From Escherichia phage vB_EcoM_Kelasse, in sequence record MW749001.1: a stretch of 64,000 bases of DNA. One strand, written 5' to 3'. This document shows positions 11,845 to 63,583 of the stretch, in pieces. Below the pieces are notes generated by a model, which was not told where the DNA came from, ran no database searches, and worked only from the letters and a program-made list of their open reading frames with translations. A program made the translations under genes and the position numbers. The stretch's first letter is position 1; every line of letters starts with the position of its first letter.

Positions 11845-11916
11845 TATTTTTTCCTTTCAATTCATGGGTTAGTAGATTAATTATACAATAAATATATAAA
11901 GCAATAAGGAGGACAT

Positions 11917-12117
11917 ATGGTACAAAAATTAATGGCACTTGTTAATGCCATAAAAGGTAATAAAAAACGTATAGCTTTTACTATTTCTGCTATGGTAGGA
12001 ATTTTACTCTGGAACTTTATTCTATCACCTGTTGCAATTGCACATGGTATTAATATTCCAGTAGTTACTCTTGATACATTCGTAGATTTAGCATTTGCTT
12101 TAGTTGGGTTAATTTAA
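11917..12117 (+). CDS. small hydrophobic membrane protein (66 aa), plus strand
   Basis: Strong AAGGAGG Shine-Dalgarno 5 nt upstream; only plus-strand ORF not shadowed by a minus-strand gene. Confidence 0.5.
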   Translation: MVQKLMALVNAIKGNKKRIAFTISAMVGILLWNFILSPVAIAHGINIPVVTLDTFVDLAFALVGLI

Positions 12118-13142
12118 ATCTTAGCATATTTAGATAACCTCATTTTAGCCATCAACCCCTGGGCAATATTATTTTTCATATATTTCATAATTTGTTCAGG
12201 GGTTGCACCTTCCTTTCTAATCATATCATTGACATCTTTTGATTTCCAGGGAGATTTATCCCAAAACATAACCCTTTCTCCTGCATCAACTAATTTAGTC
12301 ATTCGTTTGATAGTGTCAGGGTGACGAGGTTCATTATCTAAAACCCACACTCGTCTATCTTTAAATGGAACAACTTCTAGGTCTAATTGACCACCCGTAA
12401 TAGCTATACCATTTTCAATAAAAAGTGAATCTATAGGTCCTTCTAGAACATATACATCACCATCTTTAACTCGTTCAACACCGTAAATTTTTGTTGCCTC
12501 AGGATAAGCTTTAATGGTGATATATTTTTGAGGAGCATCTTTCTTTAATGCACGTCCTTGAAAAGACTCAGCTTTTCCATTAGCATTATAAATTGGAATA
12601 ACAAGACGAGGCTCAGGTATTTCCTTTTTATATGTTCCCGGTGCTATGCTATTAACTAATTTAGGCCATTCAGTTGTAAACCAAAGATATTTCCATTTAT
12701 CCTTTGGAATACAACGAGCTTTTACATATTTTATAATTGCATGGTCTTCCGCCAGTTTATCTAATCGAACACATGACGGAAGAGATTTAATTATTTTCTT
12801 CTCAGGTTGTTTAGGAAGTTCTTTAGGTTTTTCTACTGGACGACTTTTACCTTTTTCTTTTCTTATTTCAAAGATATACTCACGATATAAATCAGGTTCA
12901 AACTCCTTTAAATATATTCCGATTGGTGCATGATAGTTACAGTTATAACAATGAATATTTCCTTCATTATTATCACCATAATACCATCCACGAGCTTTAT
13001 TCTGGTCGGTTTTTGAATCTCCACAAACAGGACATCTAAACCGTAATTTAAAAGTTGAACTATTATTTACTTGTGTGAATTTAGGTAAATGAGCTAATGC
13101 ACGGTATGCAAACTCATTATCAATCCAAGGTATTGATGACAT
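12114..13142 (-). CDS. 61: DNA primase gp61
   Basis: 342 aa; N-terminal zinc ribbon CPVCGDS...CYNCNYH; TOPRIM-like core. Confidence 0.9.
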   Translation of the reverse strand: MSSIPWIDNEFAYRALAHLPKFTQVNNSSTFKLRFRCPVCGDSKTDQNKARGWYYGDNNEGNIHCYNCNYHAPIGIYLKEFEPDLYREYIFEIRKEKGKSRPVEKPKELPKQPEKKIIKSLPSCVRLDKLAEDHAIIKYVKARCIPKDKWKYLWFTTEWPKLVNSIAPGTYKKEIPEPRLVIPIYNANGKAESFQGRALKKDAPQKYITIKAYPEATKIYGVERVKDGDVYVLEGPIDSLFIENGIAITGGQLDLEVVPFKDRRVWVLDNEPRHPDTIKRMTKLVDAGERVMFWDKSPWKSKDVNDMIRKEGATPEQIMKYMKNNIAQGLMAKMRLSKYAKI

Positions 13143-13144
13143 TT

Positions 13145-13309
13145 TTACTCTTCTTTTTCTTTAGATTCCTCTTTTTTCTTTTTAGGAATCTGTTCAGGGC
13201 CTTTATTTACTACAGCGCCTGACGTTGTTCCAGTAGAGATATTTTCAGGATTACCACCTGAATCTCCAGCGACCATATCTTCTTTGATAAATTCTTTATA
13301 TGTTTTCAT
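13145..13309 (-). CDS. small protein with capsid-targeting-like N-terminus (54 aa, 61.1 position)
   Basis: Hand-translated MKTYKEFIKEDMVAGDSGG...; GAGG Shine-Dalgarno; Lys/Glu-rich tail. Confidence 0.5.
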   Translation of the reverse strand: MKTYKEFIKEDMVAGDSGGNPENISTGTTSGAVVNKGPEQIPKKKKEESKEKEE

Positions 13310-13310
13310 A

Positions 13311-13937
13311 TTAACCTCTATTCATAAAAGCATTAAAAATTTGGTCATCAATAGAAACATTTACTTTAGACTGTTTTTCAGATGGTAATTCGTATCCACA
13401 TATTACAATTTTATGATCAATATTAAAATACACAGAAGCAATATGATTAATGATGTTTTCAGTAAAGTCTAAATCAACATCAATATCTTTTTGACCACAG
13501 CCCAAAGGATAAATAATGCGAGTAATTCGATTATCTTTAACAAAGATTCCACCGACATACTCTGTACTGCGTTTAAAGTCTACACGCCGACGAAATGAAA
13601 AATATTCAGGCTCTTTATGAGCTCGGCTCATAGGACACAACGAATAACTAGAATAAGAGATGTCAAATCCTACGCCTTCGATATGAGCCAAAGTGTCATG
13701 ATTAAACCAATTATAATCGTACGCCAAATCCATTAGATTATAATATGTAAAAGGCACCGGATTAACATCATTAGTCACAAGCATGTAATTAGCAACTGCT
13801 ATAATTTCATTGTTTTTAACGAATACAAACCGTGATTGATGCGAATGACCTGGACCCGCGTTTTCACGATTAATGATATAACACTGGGCACCTTTATATT
13901 TGTATGTATCTTTGCACTTGTGCATTTGATAGAGCAT
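13311..13937 (-). CDS. hypothetical protein (208 aa, 61.2 position)
   Basis: ORF track; position between 61 and sp. Confidence 0.55.
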   Translation of the reverse strand: MLYQMHKCKDTYKYKGAQCYIINRENAGPGHSHQSRFVFVKNNEIIAVANYMLVTNDVNPVPFTYYNLMDLAYDYNWFNHDTLAHIEGVGFDISYSSYSLCPMSRAHKEPEYFSFRRRVDFKRSTEYVGGIFVKDNRITRIIYPLGCGQKDIDVDLDFTENIINHIASVYFNIDHKIVICGYELPSEKQSKVNVSIDDQIFNAFMNRG

Positions 13938-14230
13938 TATTCACCTACCACTTCAGCGATGATATTTTTGTTATTAAAGTTTTTATCGCAATACAGAACA
14001 TAATTATACTGCATTACACCACCAGACTTAAGTTGTTTTTGCACTTCAGCTTTCATTTCAGGACGATCGCGCTCAACGATATTCATAATATCCGCTTCAA
14101 TTTGAGTTTCAACTTCAGTCTGATCCGCAGTCATAGACCATTCACACAAATCTTTATCATAACCTGCCATAGCAGGCTGAGCAGCACAAGAAGCTAAAGC
14201 AAAAATTGTGGCAAAGATAAATTTTTTCAT
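13937..14230 (-). CDS. sp: spackle periplasmic protein Sp
   Basis: 97 aa with signal peptide; size and position as T4 sp. Confidence 0.75.
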   Translation of the reverse strand: MKKFIFATIFALASCAAQPAMAGYDKDLCEWSMTADQTEVETQIEADIMNIVERDRPEMKAEVQKQLKSGGVMQYNYVLYCDKNFNNKNIIAEVVGE

Positions 14231-14290
14231 GATAATCTCCTCAGTAGTTTATGTTTATATAGTATCTCAATTTCCAACAAAAGTAAACAG

Positions 14291-14590
14291 TTATTTTAAA
14301 ACTTCTGCGTAATCACATGTTACAAACTGTTTCTCTAGCTTGACGATTTTACGAAAGTATCTTTTGCATTGGCGAATCTGTCGCTTCGTAGGACGTACAG
14401 CAAACTTAATAAATTCCACTCGACCAAATGGAGGACTTTCTTCTGCTGGAATATCTAACACCAATTCCCACGTATCTGCAATAAGTGCTTTGAATTGAGT
14501 ATTTTTCCTGATGTTATACGGTGTAGGTTTAAATAAAACAATATGCATATTATCCTCGGCAATCCACTTCACATACTTTCTTGTCATCAA
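14291..14590 (-). CDS. hypothetical protein (99 aa, 61.4 position)
   Basis: ORF track; basic protein. Confidence 0.5.
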   Translation of the reverse strand: MMTRKYVKWIAEDNMHIVLFKPTPYNIRKNTQFKALIADTWELVLDIPAEESPPFGRVEFIKFAVRPTKRQIRQCKRYFRKIVKLEKQFVTCDYAEVLK

Positions 14591-14732
14591 TGAAAGCTTT
14601 AACTAATGCTTTATTAACTTCAGCATATTGAGTAGTAGCCCATTGAACGTCATCTTTCATCATTGTGATTTCTTTAGTAAACATGCTTTCATTCTTAAAC
14701 CACCCCATAAAAACTACCTTTACCAATTCCAT
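14550..14732 (-). CDS. dmd: Dmd, inhibitor of RnlA/LsoA toxins
   Basis: 60 aa; size and position immediately downstream of gene 41. Confidence 0.75.
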   Translation of the reverse strand: MELVKVVFMGWFKNESMFTKEITMMKDDVQWATTQYAEVNKALVKAFIDDKKVCEVDCRG

Positions 14733-14761
14733 AACAATCTCCTCATTTAACCAACAAGACT

Positions 14762-14791
14762 ACTATACCATAGTCTTGTCAGCTTGTAAAC
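14762..14791 (-). promoter_or_regulatory. T4 early-type promoter upstream of dmd
   Basis: Minus strand GTTTAC, 18 nt, TGGTATAGT; -10 flanked by 7-bp inverted repeat. Confidence 0.5.
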
Positions 14792-16218
14792 TAAAATTTT
14801 AATTCATTTGCCAAAGCATCTAACTGAGCTCGAGTGGATTCATTTCTTTGATAGCGATTCTGCTCAGCCTGAATCTGTTGTGAACCTGCTACTTCGTTCA
14901 CTTCAGTTGGAGTAGAATCTTGTTCAATTTCTACCCATTTCTGATTTCCCTTTTGAACACCCATCAAAAACTTATTCCACTTATTCTTATCGCCATATCG
15001 TGATTTGATTTGCTTAATGAGTTGTTGTTCAGCAGCTGCTAGCTCCTCGGTTTCAATGACCGCAAGCATAAAATCAGCTGTTGCTGGAAGACCAGCAGAT
15101 TCTGCAATATCGCTCATGTTAACATCGGAAGAGTCCCAAGCTTGTTTACCGACCTGTGCTGCAGTCCAAAGAACAGTTTCGGTTTCAACAGCCAGAGCAC
15201 GCAATTCCTCTGCAATAGCTTTAACAGTTGTGTAACTATTTTCTGAATAAACTCTGATGCGGCAAGATTTACAAATACCTAGATAGTCGACAATAATGAT
15301 TGTTGGAACAAAATTCTTCTTGAGCTTCAATTCATTCAAGAGAGACCTGAATGTGTTAGCGTCTGCTCCACCAGTAGGATACTGTTTAACGATTAAACGA
15401 CCAAGGGTAGATTTCTCACGCCATTTTTCCATTTTTCCTTTATATTCAGCGTAAGAAATATGCCCATCATCAATGTCATCAAGAGAAACATCAAGCATGT
15501 TAGCGTCAATACGCTTAGCACAGACTTCTTCTGCCATTTCCATGGAAATGTAAAGAACATTATGTCCGAGCTGTAAATAATCTGCTGCTAATGAACACAG
15601 ACCTAATGATTTACCAACGTTAACGCCAGCCATTAAAACGTTCAGTGTTCCAGTCTCAGCTCCGCCTTTAGTAATTTTGTTTAGAATTCTGAGTTTAAAT
15701 GGAACTTTACGAGCTTTATTCATATAAGATAGCCAACGTGCTTCATAGTCATCCATCCAATCATGACCAACGTAACTATCAAATGAAATAGATAATGCTT
15801 GCCGCATGATGTCAGGAATAGCACCAACATCCGGCATTTTCTTATTTCGTTTTTCCGGAGGAAGCTCAGCATTAGTTTGAATTTCGATTATTTTAGACGT
15901 AGCATTAAACATCGCCCTTTGCTGAACATATTTTTCTGTTTCTTTTACTAACCAGCTGTGGTCTTCTGGAGAATCAGCCAGTTTTGAAATAAGTGTTTTT
16001 ACACCAGAATATTCTGTTTCAGTAAATGAACTATTTTCTAATGCAACATTTAACGCATTAATAGATGGAACGCTATGATACTCATTGACATGAGATTTAA
16101 TTAATTTGAATGTATTTTTAGCTGGACCACTTTCAAAATATTCTGAATCCATATATGGCCAAACTTTTGAAAAATAAGCTTGATCAAATATAAGATGAGA
16201 AAGAATAATTTCTACCAC
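14791..16218 (-). CDS. 41: replicative DNA helicase gp41
   Basis: 475 aa; DnaB-like, Walker A GVNVGKS. Confidence 0.92.
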   Translation of the reverse strand: MVEIILSHLIFDQAYFSKVWPYMDSEYFESGPAKNTFKLIKSHVNEYHSVPSINALNVALENSSFTETEYSGVKTLISKLADSPEDHSWLVKETEKYVQQRAMFNATSKIIEIQTNAELPPEKRNKKMPDVGAIPDIMRQALSISFDSYVGHDWMDDYEARWLSYMNKARKVPFKLRILNKITKGGAETGTLNVLMAGVNVGKSLGLCSLAADYLQLGHNVLYISMEMAEEVCAKRIDANMLDVSLDDIDDGHISYAEYKGKMEKWREKSTLGRLIVKQYPTGGADANTFRSLLNELKLKKNFVPTIIIVDYLGICKSCRIRVYSENSYTTVKAIAEELRALAVETETVLWTAAQVGKQAWDSSDVNMSDIAESAGLPATADFMLAVIETEELAAAEQQLIKQIKSRYGDKNKWNKFLMGVQKGNQKWVEIEQDSTPTEVNEVAGSQQIQAEQNRYQRNESTRAQLDALANELKF

Positions 16219-57427: not shown

Positions 57428-57901
57428 TTATTTGAATGATTTGACGTACTGAATAGAACCTTTACTATTCACGAAAGCGATTTTACCATTTTTATTATAC
57501 ATGGTAGCAGTACGCTGATAGCCATAAGTTTGTTTACCAGATTGATAACCAACTAATGCGAAATTATCTTCACCCATTTTATTCTGTTTAGCGCGAATAC
57601 GTTCATGACCGTGTGCCATAAGAACCTTAGCATCACCAGTTGAAATTGATCTACGAGTTTTTTCATCTTCAACTGTATTAACAAAGTCGTCAAATGAATC
57701 AAATTTAGCATGGGATTTATTATACAGTTTTCCATCTACTGCATAATTATATCCCTGTACATCCATCTCAACTTCTGTACCATCATCCAATACAGCAGTG
57801 ATTTTTTGACCTTTTTTAAATTTCAAAAGATCAGTAAAAGATTCAGCAATAATTTGAGAATTAATAGCTGCTTCAGTGATAAATTCTTGATATGTTTTCA
57901 T
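57428..57901 (-). CDS. internal-protein-like protein with capsid targeting sequence (157 aa)
   Basis: N-terminus MKTYQEFITEA matches the T4 internal-protein targeting motif. Confidence 0.6.
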   Translation of the reverse strand: MKTYQEFITEAAINSQIIAESFTDLLKFKKGQKITAVLDDGTEVEMDVQGYNYAVDGKLYNKSHAKFDSFDDFVNTVEDEKTRRSISTGDAKVLMAHGHERIRAKQNKMGEDNFALVGYQSGKQTYGYQRTATMYNKNGKIAFVNSKGSIQYVKSFK

Positions 57902-58385: not shown

Positions 58386-59188
<803 letters not shown>

Positions 59189-63019: not shown

Positions 63020-63583
63020 TTATTTATCTAGTTTAGTTATTATAGCTTCTGCGGCAGCTTTTAGCTTAGATGCGGTGTTAATACGATTTTTAATTTCAGT
63101 ATACGCATCGCCAAGAACATCAAGGCTATCAGAATAAACACTTACACTATTGCGTTCGCTATTTGAAATAGAACCTTTAGTTTTACGTTCAAAATCGGTG
63201 TACACGTCTTGAAGATCACGGGCTGCCTTCTTTGCATCATCCAATGCATCAAGAGCTTTATTCAAAGCATTAACATATTTTTTAGTGTCGAACATATTCT
63301 TAGAAATTTTAACAGGTGCACGTTCAGGAGTAGCTAAGGCAGATTTAGGAACCTGAGCGCCAGATGCCAATTTCTTAGAAATTTTGAAAAATGCTTTATT
63401 GAAACTATTTTCTTGACTCATCGTAAAAGAACTATTATCAATGTTATACATTTCAATAGCTTTAGCTTTCCACTTAAGAAAATCGCCACGGTCTTTTGGG
63501 TCCAAGTGGAAGAATACTTTAGTAAGATCTGCTTCAGATGGTAATTTTGCTGCTTCGGTTAAAAATTCGGCGTAGGTTTTCAT
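63020..63583 (-). CDS. internal-protein-like protein with capsid targeting sequence (187 aa)
   Basis: N-terminus MKTYAEFLTEA; hairpin downstream. Confidence 0.6.
   Translation of the reverse strand: MKTYAEFLTEAAKLPSEADLTKVFFHLDPKDRGDFLKWKAKAIEMYNIDNSSFTMSQENSFNKAFFKISKKLASGAQVPKSALATPERAPVKISKNMFDTKKYVNALNKALDALDDAKKAARDLQDVYTDFERKTKGSISNSERNSVSVYSDSLDVLGDAYTEIKNRINTASKLKAAAEAIITKLDK

Follow-up and report, generated by a model that had tools for sequence, protein, structure and literature searches.

In Escherichia phage vB_EcoM_Kelasse (MW749001.1), the five small genes that separate primase gene 61 from helicase gene 41 most likely form the orthologue of the T4 61-41 accessory block, arranged as two early minus-strand transcription units, a reading to which we assign a probability of about 93%. 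The phage is a Tequatrovirus whose closest record is Shigella phage KRT47, and the window analyzed here is a stretch of 64,000 nucleotides (64 kb) of its DNA. The correspondence with T4 was observed directly in the identity and order of the genes, their junctions, the conserved promoters, and key residues. We infer the biochemical activities of the block by analogy, from experiments on T4 proteins that are 96-100% identical to those of this phage and on RB69 proteins.

Organization of the 61-41 interval

Five tightly packed small ORFs occupy positions 13145-14732 of the minus strand (Table 1), in an order collinear with T4 61.1, 61.2, sp, 61.4, and dmd. The alignment of the interval to T4 was gapless over 1648 bp, with 1598 identical bases, and protein identity was 96-100%; this collinearity and these identities bear out the initial annotation, which had placed sp, dmd, and three other ORFs between genes 61 and 41. 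Full-length Pfam family matches were obtained for four of the five genes and PHROG matches for all five. Codon changes relative to T4 were mostly synonymous, with 19 synonymous and 7 non-synonymous changes in 61.2, 7 and 1 in sp, and 7 and 2 in 61.4, and the region is common to 542 phage records. Taken together, the family matches, the mostly synonymous differences, and the 542 records indicate that the five ORFs are genuine genes and did not arise by chance. Mechanically called plus-strand ORFs (e.g., 13904-14197) were present in no annotated relative, and coding sequence takes up the whole minus strand. An Rfam search of positions 12900-15000 on both strands returned zero matches, and a terminator scan detected none within the 61-41 interval.

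Table 1. Features of the 61-41 interval and its flanking genes, with positions in the window.
Feature	Position	Strand	Details
gene 61, DNA primase (flank)	12114..13142	-	337/342 identical to T4 gp61
gene 61.1	13145..13309	-	54 aa; 52/54 identical to T4; phrog_1823
adfA (gene 61.2)	13311..13937	-	208 aa; 201/208 identical to T4 gp61.2; Pfam PF23813
sp (gene 61.3, Spackle)	13937..14230	-	97-aa precursor; 96/97 identical to T4; Pfam PF25676
spacer with second promoter-like element (GTTTAC...TACTAT) and sp ribosome-binding site	14231..14290	-	60/60 identical to T4
tifA (gene 61.4)	14291..14548	-	85 aa; 83/85 identical to T4; Pfam DUF7279
dmd (gene 61.5)	14550..14732	-	60 aa; 60/60 identical to T4; Pfam PF17587
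early promoter (sigma-70 type) of the dmd-tifA operon	14762..14790	-	TTTACA, 17 nt, TATAGT; TG before -10
gene 41, replicative helicase (flank), GTG start	14791..16218	-	475/475 identical to T4 gp41

The first gene downstream of helicase gene 41 is dmd, which lies behind an early promoter and is co-operonic with 61.4. This promoter was the top promoter-like site of our scan, with 10/12 consensus matches; its -10 hexamer sits in the loop of a strong hairpin, and the 58-bp spacer between gene 41 and dmd is identical to T4 at 57 positions. In T4, dmd-61.4 is under the control of an early promoter, and a promoter downstream of tifA is also mentioned (PMC9391042). The element in the spacer ahead of sp scored under the threshold of the consensus scan, so the sp promoter is putative. 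Transcription from it would continue through sp, adfA, and 61.1 into primase gene 61, across junctions at which the sp stop and the adfA start codon share one base and the 61.1 stop lies 2 nt ahead of the gene 61 start. T4 61.2, sp, 61.4, and dmd are early both by RNA and by protein (PMC9697503 supplement).

Predicted toxin inhibitors and superinfection exclusion

The initial annotation described Dmd as an inhibitor of the RnlA and LsoA toxins, and our data agree. Pfam PF17587 covers residues 1-60 of Dmd with 156.9 bits, and a PDB sequence search matched the same residues to 5hy3_B, "Antitoxin Dmd" (E 1.8e-37). Since the protein is identical to T4 Dmd, an inhibitor of RnlA (PMC9391042), it is inferred to inhibit the endoribonuclease toxins RnlA and LsoA directly, and growth of the phage on rnlAB and lsoAB hosts is predicted by analogy. 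Entry 5HY3 is a solved structure of Dmd; the T4 protein has been crystallized with RnlA.

A ToxN inhibitor reported from T4 for this interval can be identified as 61.4, since tifA is 61.4 and encodes a ToxN inhibitor of 85 aa (PMC9391042). TifA of this phage differs from T4 gp61.4 only by V13I and I83V and matched DUF7279 with 72 bits (Pfam) as well as phrog_2375. The ORF had been listed at 99 aa, a length that reflects a mechanical extension to a TTG codon; the annotated and published gene starts at the ATG at 14548, and with this start corrected the proposed alignment to T4 61.4 confirmed homology. It is highly improbable that the real product is instead the TTG-initiated frame 14291-14590, an N-terminally extended TifA overlapping dmd, which has in its favor that it is the longest mechanical ORF. 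The 85-aa ATG start is annotated in T4, KRT47, and RB18, the functionally studied TifA has 85 aa (PMC9391042), and the aligned Met is the start of RB69 TifA. In addition, the TTG extension falls within the dmd coding sequence in another frame, while the ATG follows one base after the dmd stop (TAA-T-ATG) and is preceded by GAGGA. We therefore rejected the TTG start on the grounds of annotation, the RB69 Met, and the GAGGA and ATG after the dmd stop.

Starting from the ATG, TifA retains K55, R56, and R59, which are invariant in an alignment of the TifA proteins of the window, T4, and RB69; the K55A R56A R59A mutant is RNA-binding-deficient (PMC10853763). How strongly TifA inhibits ToxN depends on residue 41, with Ser or His giving strong and Phe weak inhibition (F41S and F41H make T4 TifA stronger; PMC10853763); the residue is Phe here, as in T4. 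By this allele, TifA of this phage belongs to the weak, T4-type class. From experiments in T4 and RB69, it is predicted to bind RNA and to inhibit ToxN, a type III toxin, and a single-copy F41 tifA is predicted to fail against plasmid-borne toxIN. No solved relative of TifA or of AdfA was found in the PDB sequence search, and neither protein had an NCBIfam match.

Aligning the 208-aa ORF to T4 61.2, as had been suggested, established it as the orthologue: PF23813, "Anti-DarT factor A", matched residues 1-208 over model positions 1-211 of 211, with 451.6 bits against a cutoff of 27. The anti-DarT factor reported for this interval is accordingly 61.2, the gene named adfA in T4 (PMC9391042). His165 of AdfA aligns with Arg164 of RB69 AdfA, at which an R-to-H change confers DarT1 binding (PMC11257639). 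AdfA of this phage is thus predicted to be of the DarT1-binding (His) type, possibly redundantly. Deletion of adfA from T4 gave no phenotype on DarTG1 hosts, although the allele was active when expressed ectopically, because AdfN (gp30.3) covers that job (PMC11257639). Given the lack of a DarTG1 phenotype in T4 without adfA, the label of anti-DarT defence may overstate the role of AdfA here. AdfA and TifA stand 7 and 2 positions off T4, respectively, and both families have been reported to be specificity-tuned.

Spackle differs from its T4 counterpart only by K53E. PF25676 (Pfam) extends over residues 1-96, and PDB matches were obtained to 6x6o (over 1-97), 6xc0, 6xc1, 7cn6, and 7cn7. The 7cn6 chain begins at residue 23, indicating a 22-aa signal peptide and a mature protein of 75 aa. 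Cys29 and Cys81, both present in the translated sequence, form a disulfide in Spackle, which acts in the periplasm, where it binds and inhibits gp5, the tail lysozyme of the superinfecting phage (PMC7677548). By analogy, Spackle of this phage would act in the same way. Because this function is superinfection exclusion and its target is phage gp5, sp has no anti-host role.

Collectively, these assignments suggest how the block may operate. From the first unit (promoter, dmd, tifA), two small cytoplasmic substitute antitoxins would be produced: Dmd would bind and block the HEPN RNases RnlA and LsoA, and TifA would bind ToxN together with RNA, holding the toxin in an inactive ribonucleoprotein. 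From the second unit (promoter-like spacer, sp, adfA, 61.1, gene 61), Spackle would be exported to the periplasm and inhibit the gp5 lysozyme of later-arriving phage, AdfA would bind the DNA ADP-ribosyltransferase DarT1, and gp61.1 would be the third product, a small peptide. Srikant, Guegler and Laub (eLife 2022, PMC9391042) have already suggested that the region may be an "anti-TA island". The initial description of the interval as a cluster of anti-host genes held for the published toxin-antitoxin inhibitors dmd, tifA, and adfA, but not for sp, which targets phage gp5, or for 61.1, with its capsid-maturation-like sequence. The functions of dmd, tifA, and adfA and the island idea are already known, and the observation is correct but ordinary. 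It means that the phage has the counter-defences against toxin-antitoxin systems that are standard for T4. It may also aid annotation, as adfA and tifA are still "hypothetical protein" in many records, and host-range prediction, with Phe41 of TifA pointing to sensitivity to plasmid-borne toxIN and His165 of AdfA marking the DarT1-binding type.

Capsid-maturation-like features of gp61.1

The first ten residues of gp61.1 (MKTYKEFIKE) are identical at 8/10 positions to the leader of the T4 internal proteins IPII and IPIII (MKTYQEFIAE), including an I/L-x-E ending. In this capsid targeting sequence, residues 4 and 7 have been reported to serve targeting and residues 8 and 10 processing, and gp61.1 keeps all four. 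Just four ORFs of the window begin with the leader motif (0/200 shuffles); two of the other three belong to internal-virion or internal-head protein PHROGs.

Similarity to the major capsid protein gp23 was also detected. BLASTP aligned gp61.1 with gp23 residues 57-93 (E 2e-9), hhalign aligned residues 1-47 with gp23 residues 55-102 (probability 97.4%), and tblastn in a phage collection linked gp61.1 to gene 23 of phage 133 (E 3e-4). The alignment sets the gp23 bond Glu65|Ala66 opposite Glu10|Asp11 of gp61.1. A word-indexed homologue search yielded only 17 close relatives of gp61.1, and an exhaustive profile search yielded 51 representative clusters; the gp23 N-terminus matched 46 of these 51 family representatives. 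Full-length gp23 was not among the matches of a library-wide search with the gp61.1 profile at E<=0.001, and the gp23 link thus rests on the BLASTP, tblastn, and hhalign results and on the matches of the gp23 N-terminus. Pfam gave nothing meaningful for long-form 61.1 homologues, and NCBIfam had no match to gp61.1.

Across the family, a hydrophobic-x-Glu motif directly precedes the core in approximately 49 of the 51 representatives, regardless of N-terminal length, and the tail, Lys-rich in gp61.1 of this phage, is basic, with a mean of 5.9 Lys/Arg per 16 residues. As judged from sequence, the family combines an apparent copy of the gp23 cleavage site and N-arm, a putative hydrophobic-x-Glu prohead-protease motif, and a basic tail, and a capsid targeting sequence of internal-protein type appears to be an addition in T-even members. 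The protein is probably disordered. No gene of the interval is conserved more widely than gp61.1, with 1396 records compared to 486 for AdfA; its family is found across Straboviridae, and the homologue is fixed beside the primase gene in distant phages.

Some databases carry gp61.1 as a "major capsid domain-containing protein". We rejected membership in the gp23 family, since gp61.1 has 54 aa compared to an HK97-fold body of ~520 aa and gave no Pfam capsid match; the alignments identify it as an apparent mimic of a gp23 segment, not a capsid protein. An overlap with the Gol/Lit-activating segment of gp23 was also rejected, on the position of that segment, which we take to lie just downstream of residue 93, where gp61.1 turns into its basic tail.

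These features suggest a role for gp61.1 tied to the prohead or the prohead protease. One possibility, to which we give somewhat less than even odds, is that gp61.1 is taken by its CTS-like or gp23-like segment to the prohead core or to gp21 and cut after Glu10, with the resulting basic peptide of ~44 aa either staying with the DNA and being injected or leaving the head. The near-intact leader with its targeting and processing residues, the rarity of the leader motif in the window, the alignment of the gp23 cleavage site with Glu10|Asp11, and the basic tail are all consistent with such processing, as is the retention of hydrophobic-x-Glu, given that gp21 cuts after Glu in I/L-x-E. However, T4 61.1 RNA was classed as early and the protein was undetected (PMC9697503 supplement), and a mass-spectrometry study of the T4 head reported nine processed head proteins with 61.1 unmentioned. 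Many members have an acidic residue at P1', and the absence of full-length gp23 from the profile search at the threshold used argues in the same direction.

Early transcription of 61.1 alongside known counter-defence genes (PMC9697503 supplement) is in line with a decoy or regulator, an explanation that we nonetheless consider unlikely. Here, gp61.1 would be made early, mimic the cleavage region of gp23, and compete for free gp21 protease or for host sensors of capsid or protease activity, or it would tune head assembly by competing with gp23 for the scaffold. In the decoy version, host sensors such as CBASS CD-NTases would be activated by gp21 cleavage, and gp61.1 would be a fourth counter-defence gene. 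The gp23-like mimicry in its sequence is compatible with this idea, a host system has been described that detects gp21 cleavage at an LPE loop (PMC12991175), and the other genes of the interval were flagged as anti-toxin candidates (PMC9391042). However, the idea derives from sequence, and gp61.1 is spread far more widely than dmd, tifA, and adfA. Because of this spread and its fixed position beside the primase gene in distant phages, 61.1 looks like a housekeeping rather than an arms-race gene.

We tentatively propose, as a doubtful possibility, that gp61.1 is either an unrecognized gp21 substrate, yielding a packaged or injected basic peptide or acting as an assembly regulator, or an early pseudo-substrate that blunts immunity keyed to the capsid or the protease. 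No paper on gp61.1 as a gp21 substrate or pseudo-substrate was found in the searchable literature, and this side result may be new. If true, T4 head maturation, or immunity that senses the capsid and the protease, would gain a small, conserved participant, and there would be an explanation for why 61.1, unlike its neighbors, is fixed beside the primase gene across distant T4-like phages.

Comparison with T4, KRT47, RB69, and the internal proteins

The interval studied here matches the T4 61-41 interval in its five genes, their order and strand, the abutting or overlapping stop/start junctions, and both promoter spacers, with no indels. The two differ by point differences only, at 7 positions in AdfA, 2 in TifA, 2 in gp61.1, 1 in Spackle, and 0 in Dmd. 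Just downstream of gene 61, T4 carries dam and segF, which have no homologue in the 64-kb window. KRT47 has the same gene content and is 99.5% identical across 2.1 kb.

Other relatives vary in what the interval contains. In RB18, the slur phages, Sf22, and others, an extra 357-bp gene, absent here and in T4, lies between 61.1 and 61.2 and encodes a 118-aa paralogue of the AdfA C-terminal half. RB69 (Mosigvirus) keeps the 61.1, adfA, sp, tifA, and dmd homologues in order, and its AdfA and TifA are 70% and 57% identical to the window proteins. Unlike the phage studied here, RB69 carries within the interval imm, imm.1, and five further ORFs, and it has a 92-aa form of gp61.1, the non-neutralizing AdfA allele Arg164 (His here), and the stronger TifA allele His41 (Phe41 here).

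This variation bears on a further interpretation, in which the interval is not a coherent anti-host island but a hyperplastic slot, flanked by core replication genes, in which unrelated small accessory genes accumulate. The additional genes of RB69 and of many Tequatroviruses are as this would expect, the 61.1 homologue is the sole gene between 41 and 61 in Aeromonas phage 31.2, and the contents here are mixed, with three anti-toxin factors, one superinfection-exclusion protein directed at phage gp5 and not at the host, and one capsid-related peptide. However, three of the five genes inhibit toxins of toxin-antitoxin systems, which is above chance expectation and is the basis of the island proposal (PMC9391042). 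We regard the slot as a credible minority view. It overlaps with, and does not exclude, orthology to the T4 accessory block, which we retain as the main explanation.

With T4 IPI, IPII, and IPIII, gp61.1 shares the N-terminal decapeptide, at 8/10 positions of the IPII/IPIII leader. It differs from these internal proteins in being much smaller, in being encoded in the replication gene cluster and having no virion report, and in carrying after the leader a gp23-like segment that is missing from them.

Gene content and transcription of the interval between genes 61 and 41

The interval between the primase gene 61 (12114-13142) and the helicase gene 41 (14791-16218) is coding throughout on the minus strand (13145-14732), and the five-ORF cluster that the initial annotation had placed there holds up against T4. 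All five genes and their order (61.1, 61.2, sp, 61.4, and dmd) agree with the T4 reference annotation, and a gap-free alignment of the 1648-bp interval to T4 has 1598 identical bases. Identities to the T4 proteins are 52/54 for 61.1, 201/208 for 61.2, 96/97 for Spackle (sp), 83/85 for 61.4, and 60/60 for Dmd, with the flanking gp61 and gp41 identical at 337/342 and 475/475 positions. Since codon differences from T4 are chiefly synonymous, the genes are under purifying selection. Positions 12900-15000 matched 542 phage records by megablast, almost all Tequatrovirus from Escherichia, Shigella, and Yersinia hosts, with Shigella phage KRT47 as the top match (99.5%).

ORFs of the interval and ORFs starting with a motif like the capsid targeting sequence (CTS)
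Feature	Coordinates	Strand	Remarks
61.1 ORF	13145-13309	-	54 aa
61.2 (adfA) ORF	13311-13937	-	208 aa
sp ORF	13937-14230	-	97 aa
61.4 (tifA) ORF	14291-14590	-	99 aa from TTG (mechanical longest frame)
dmd ORF	14550-14732	-	60 aa
CTS-motif ORF	57428-57901	-	MKTY-x-EF-[IL]-x-E start; internal virion/head protein PHROG
CTS-motif ORF	58386-58667	-	MKTY-x-EF-[IL]-x-E start; internal virion/head protein PHROG
CTS-motif ORF	63020-63583	-	MKTY-x-EF-[IL]-x-E start; 187 aa, phrog_2280, unknown function

Genes dmd/61.4 and 61.2/61.1 are joined by TAA-T-ATG and 61.1/61 by TAA-AA-ATG, while one base is shared by the sp stop and the 61.2 ATG. The block has only two spacers, one upstream of dmd (58 bp, 14733-14790, minus strand; 57/58 identical to T4) and one upstream of sp (60 bp; 60/60 identical). 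The promoter scan placed the region's top sigma-70-like site in the former (TTTACA, 17 nt, TATAGT, with TG); the latter carries GTTTAC...TACTAT and a ribosome-binding site. Although a promoter downstream of tifA has been mentioned (PMC9391042), the sp-spacer site scores under the scan threshold, and we therefore count this promoter as inferred. Together, the tight junctions and two promoter-type spacers indicate two early units, dmd-tifA and sp-adfA-61.1, with gene 61 as the continuation of the second. T4 data class 61.2, sp, 61.4, and dmd as early by both RNA and protein, and 61.1 as early by RNA, with its protein undetected (PMC9697503 supplement).

The 41/dmd spacer (14733-14790, minus strand) also folds into a strong hairpin (stem of ~14 bp, -20.2 kcal/mol, z -4.2) that 0 of 200 shuffles matched and that T4 keeps save for one base. 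Because the loop contains the dmd promoter's -10 hexamer, the complete hairpin would be present only in gene 41 read-through transcripts. A 19-nt direct repeat (84% identical; 14225-14243 and 14727-14745, 502 bp apart) spans the ribosome-binding site and start of both sp and dmd, with exactly one dmd-tifA unit between the copies. Microhomology of this kind is reportedly used by T4 for segmental amplification of this locus.

Toxin inhibitors and Spackle

Dmd had been described as a toxin inhibitor, in agreement with its full-length match to PF17587 and its identity to the T4 protein of PDB 5hy3, titled 'Antitoxin Dmd'. T4 Dmd inhibits RnlA directly, and rnlAB protects only against dmd-less phage (PMC9391042). 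T4 genes of this interval had also been described as a ToxN inhibitor and an anti-DarT factor, and alignment to T4 identifies them as 61.4 (PMC9391042) and 61.2, respectively.

The Pfam family of 61.4 (TifA) is still DUF7279. The 99-aa TTG frame initially taken as this gene has the wrong start and was rejected, as T4, KRT47, and RB18 annotate an ATG at 14548, one base past the dmd stop, giving 85 aa; RB69 TifA begins at a Met aligned with this start. The 85-aa form is the one shown to be functional and is alone sufficient to neutralise ToxN (PMC9391042). TifA binds both ToxN and RNA, holding ToxN in a ribonucleoprotein; the K55A R56A R59A variant served as an RNA-binding-deficient control, and F41S or F41H makes T4 TifA stronger (PMC10853763). 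The window TifA differs from that of T4 by V13I and I83V only, keeping K55, R56, R59, and Phe at residue 41. T4 evades toxIN through dmd-tifA amplification (PMC9391042); by inference from T4, the window TifA would likewise be active, with a single copy too weak against plasmid-borne toxIN.

For the 61.2 product, PF23813 ('Anti-DarT factor A') gave a full-length match of 451.6 bits. RB69 AdfA has Arg164 and does not bind DarT1, R164H confers binding, and His is natural at this site in most T-even relatives (PMC11257639); Arg164 aligns to His165 of the window protein. T4 without adfA is still DarTG1-resistant because gp30.3 (AdfN) strips ADP-ribose, and T4 AdfA may, as the study's authors suggest, act on a different DarT (PMC11257639). 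Gene 30.3 probably sits outside the window. In many Tequatroviruses, 61.1 and 61.2 are separated by an extra 118-aa gene (in RB18, 912-1268 of sequence L003, inserted at window position ~13310), which is missing from the window, as from T4. Its product, assigned to phrog_4122, is a paralogue of the AdfA C-terminal half (36% identity, E 3e-9), and the final 14 residues, SIDDQIFNAFMNRG, are identical in both. This paralogue could serve as a second specificity module aimed at DarT.

Spackle matches PF25676 and PDB entries 6x6o, 6xc0, 6xc1, 7cn6, and 7cn7, with a 22-residue signal peptide and a Cys29/Cys81 pair. In the periplasm, its mature 75-aa form makes a 1:1 complex with the gp5 lysozyme domain and inhibits the enzyme, leading to superinfection exclusion (PMC7677548). 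By analogy, its target is a competing phage rather than host defences; the proposed anti-host label fits dmd, 61.2, and 61.4 as anti-toxin genes but not sp or 61.1.

Resemblance of gp61.1 to gp23 and internal head proteins

In RB69, the interval holds additional imm, imm.1, and further ORFs, while in Aeromonas phage 31.2 the sole gene between 41 and 61 is a 61.1 homologue. With the 118-aa gene, these differences indicate a plastic slot in which 61.1 alone is constant. A tblastn search located gp61.1 in 1396 phage records, compared to only 486 for AdfA; phages of Klebsiella, Acinetobacter, Aeromonas, Enterobacter, and Erwinia are among the 1396. Acinetobacter, Aeromonas, Klebsiella, and Cronobacter phages have the gene immediately upstream of the primase gene or with one small ORF in between. 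We found no paper characterising gp61.1 in the searchable literature.

Some databases label gp61.1 'major capsid domain-containing protein'. Residues 2-38 align without gaps to residues 57-93 of gp23, T4's major capsid protein (16/37 identical, E 2e-9), using a gp23 N-terminal query identical at 132/132 positions to deposited T6 and AR1 gene 23. A 13-sequence profile placed gp61.1 1-47 onto gp23 55-102 (probability 97.4%, E 1.4e-11), and the gp23 N-terminus matched 46 of 51 family representatives in a constant region. Because only 48 residues align, we rejected a major capsid identity. The gp23 maturation site LTE65/A66 faces IKE10/D11 of gp61.1; gp23 66-105 is a flexible N-terminal region, thought to touch the scaffolding core, that subsequently turns into the N-arm and N-fist (PMC9546572).

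The gp61.1 start, MKTYKEFIKE, equals the CTS of T4 internal proteins IPII and IPIII, MKTYQEFIAE, at 8/10 positions; the residues for targeting (4 and 7) and for processing (8 and 10) are all kept. This leader motif begins four ORFs in the 64-kb window (0/200 shuffles), and two of the three others belong to internal-virion or internal-head protein PHROGs, with sequence likeness to IPII or IPIII that stops at the leader. The third is a candidate additional internal protein.

Across 51 representative clusters (mutual identity <=50%, 50-251 aa), the gp61.1 family has a conserved module at or near the C-terminus. Where its core was located, 41 of 49 representatives have Glu two residues before it and Leu/Ile/Phe/Met/Val two further upstream; in the other eight, the motif is shifted by one residue, as judged by eye. 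A basic tail follows the core (mean 5.9 Lys/Arg per 16 residues), and both features are kept across Straboviridae. The prohead protease gp21 cleaves after the Glu of I/L-x-E motifs (PMC12991175).

Our best, tentative reading of these sequence features (probability about 0.35) is that gp61.1 is a prohead protease substrate, with gp23-like and CTS-like mimicry directing it to gp21 or the core. We consider it unlikely that gp61.1 acts as a decoy for immunity that senses the protease or the capsid, or as an assembly regulator. Host CBASS enzymes activated by gp21 cleavage were recently described (PMC12991175). Any head role must contend with the early RNA and undetected protein of T4 61.1 (PMC9697503 supplement), its absence from the T4 head-processing list, and the failure of the gp61.1-family profile to retrieve full-length gp23 at library-wide significance. 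The gp23 resemblance is a modest, testable lead on the one unexplained gene of the interval.

Comparison with T4 and published systems

Searching the whole 64-kb window by tblastn gave 0 matches to T4 Dam methyltransferase and SegF homologues. Between genes 56 and 61 (11845-12117) lies a 66-aa ORF (11917-12117, plus strand, phrog_2024), annotated in KRT47 as a predicted membrane protein; KRT47 and RB69 share this arrangement. Judged from sequence, dmd, tifA, adfA, and sp differ from T4 by a few substitutions and nothing more. An anti-TA island, with the remaining interval genes as candidates, has already been proposed (PMC9391042), and the anti-toxin gene block described here is an instance of that known, published system, the phage itself being nearly identical to T4.
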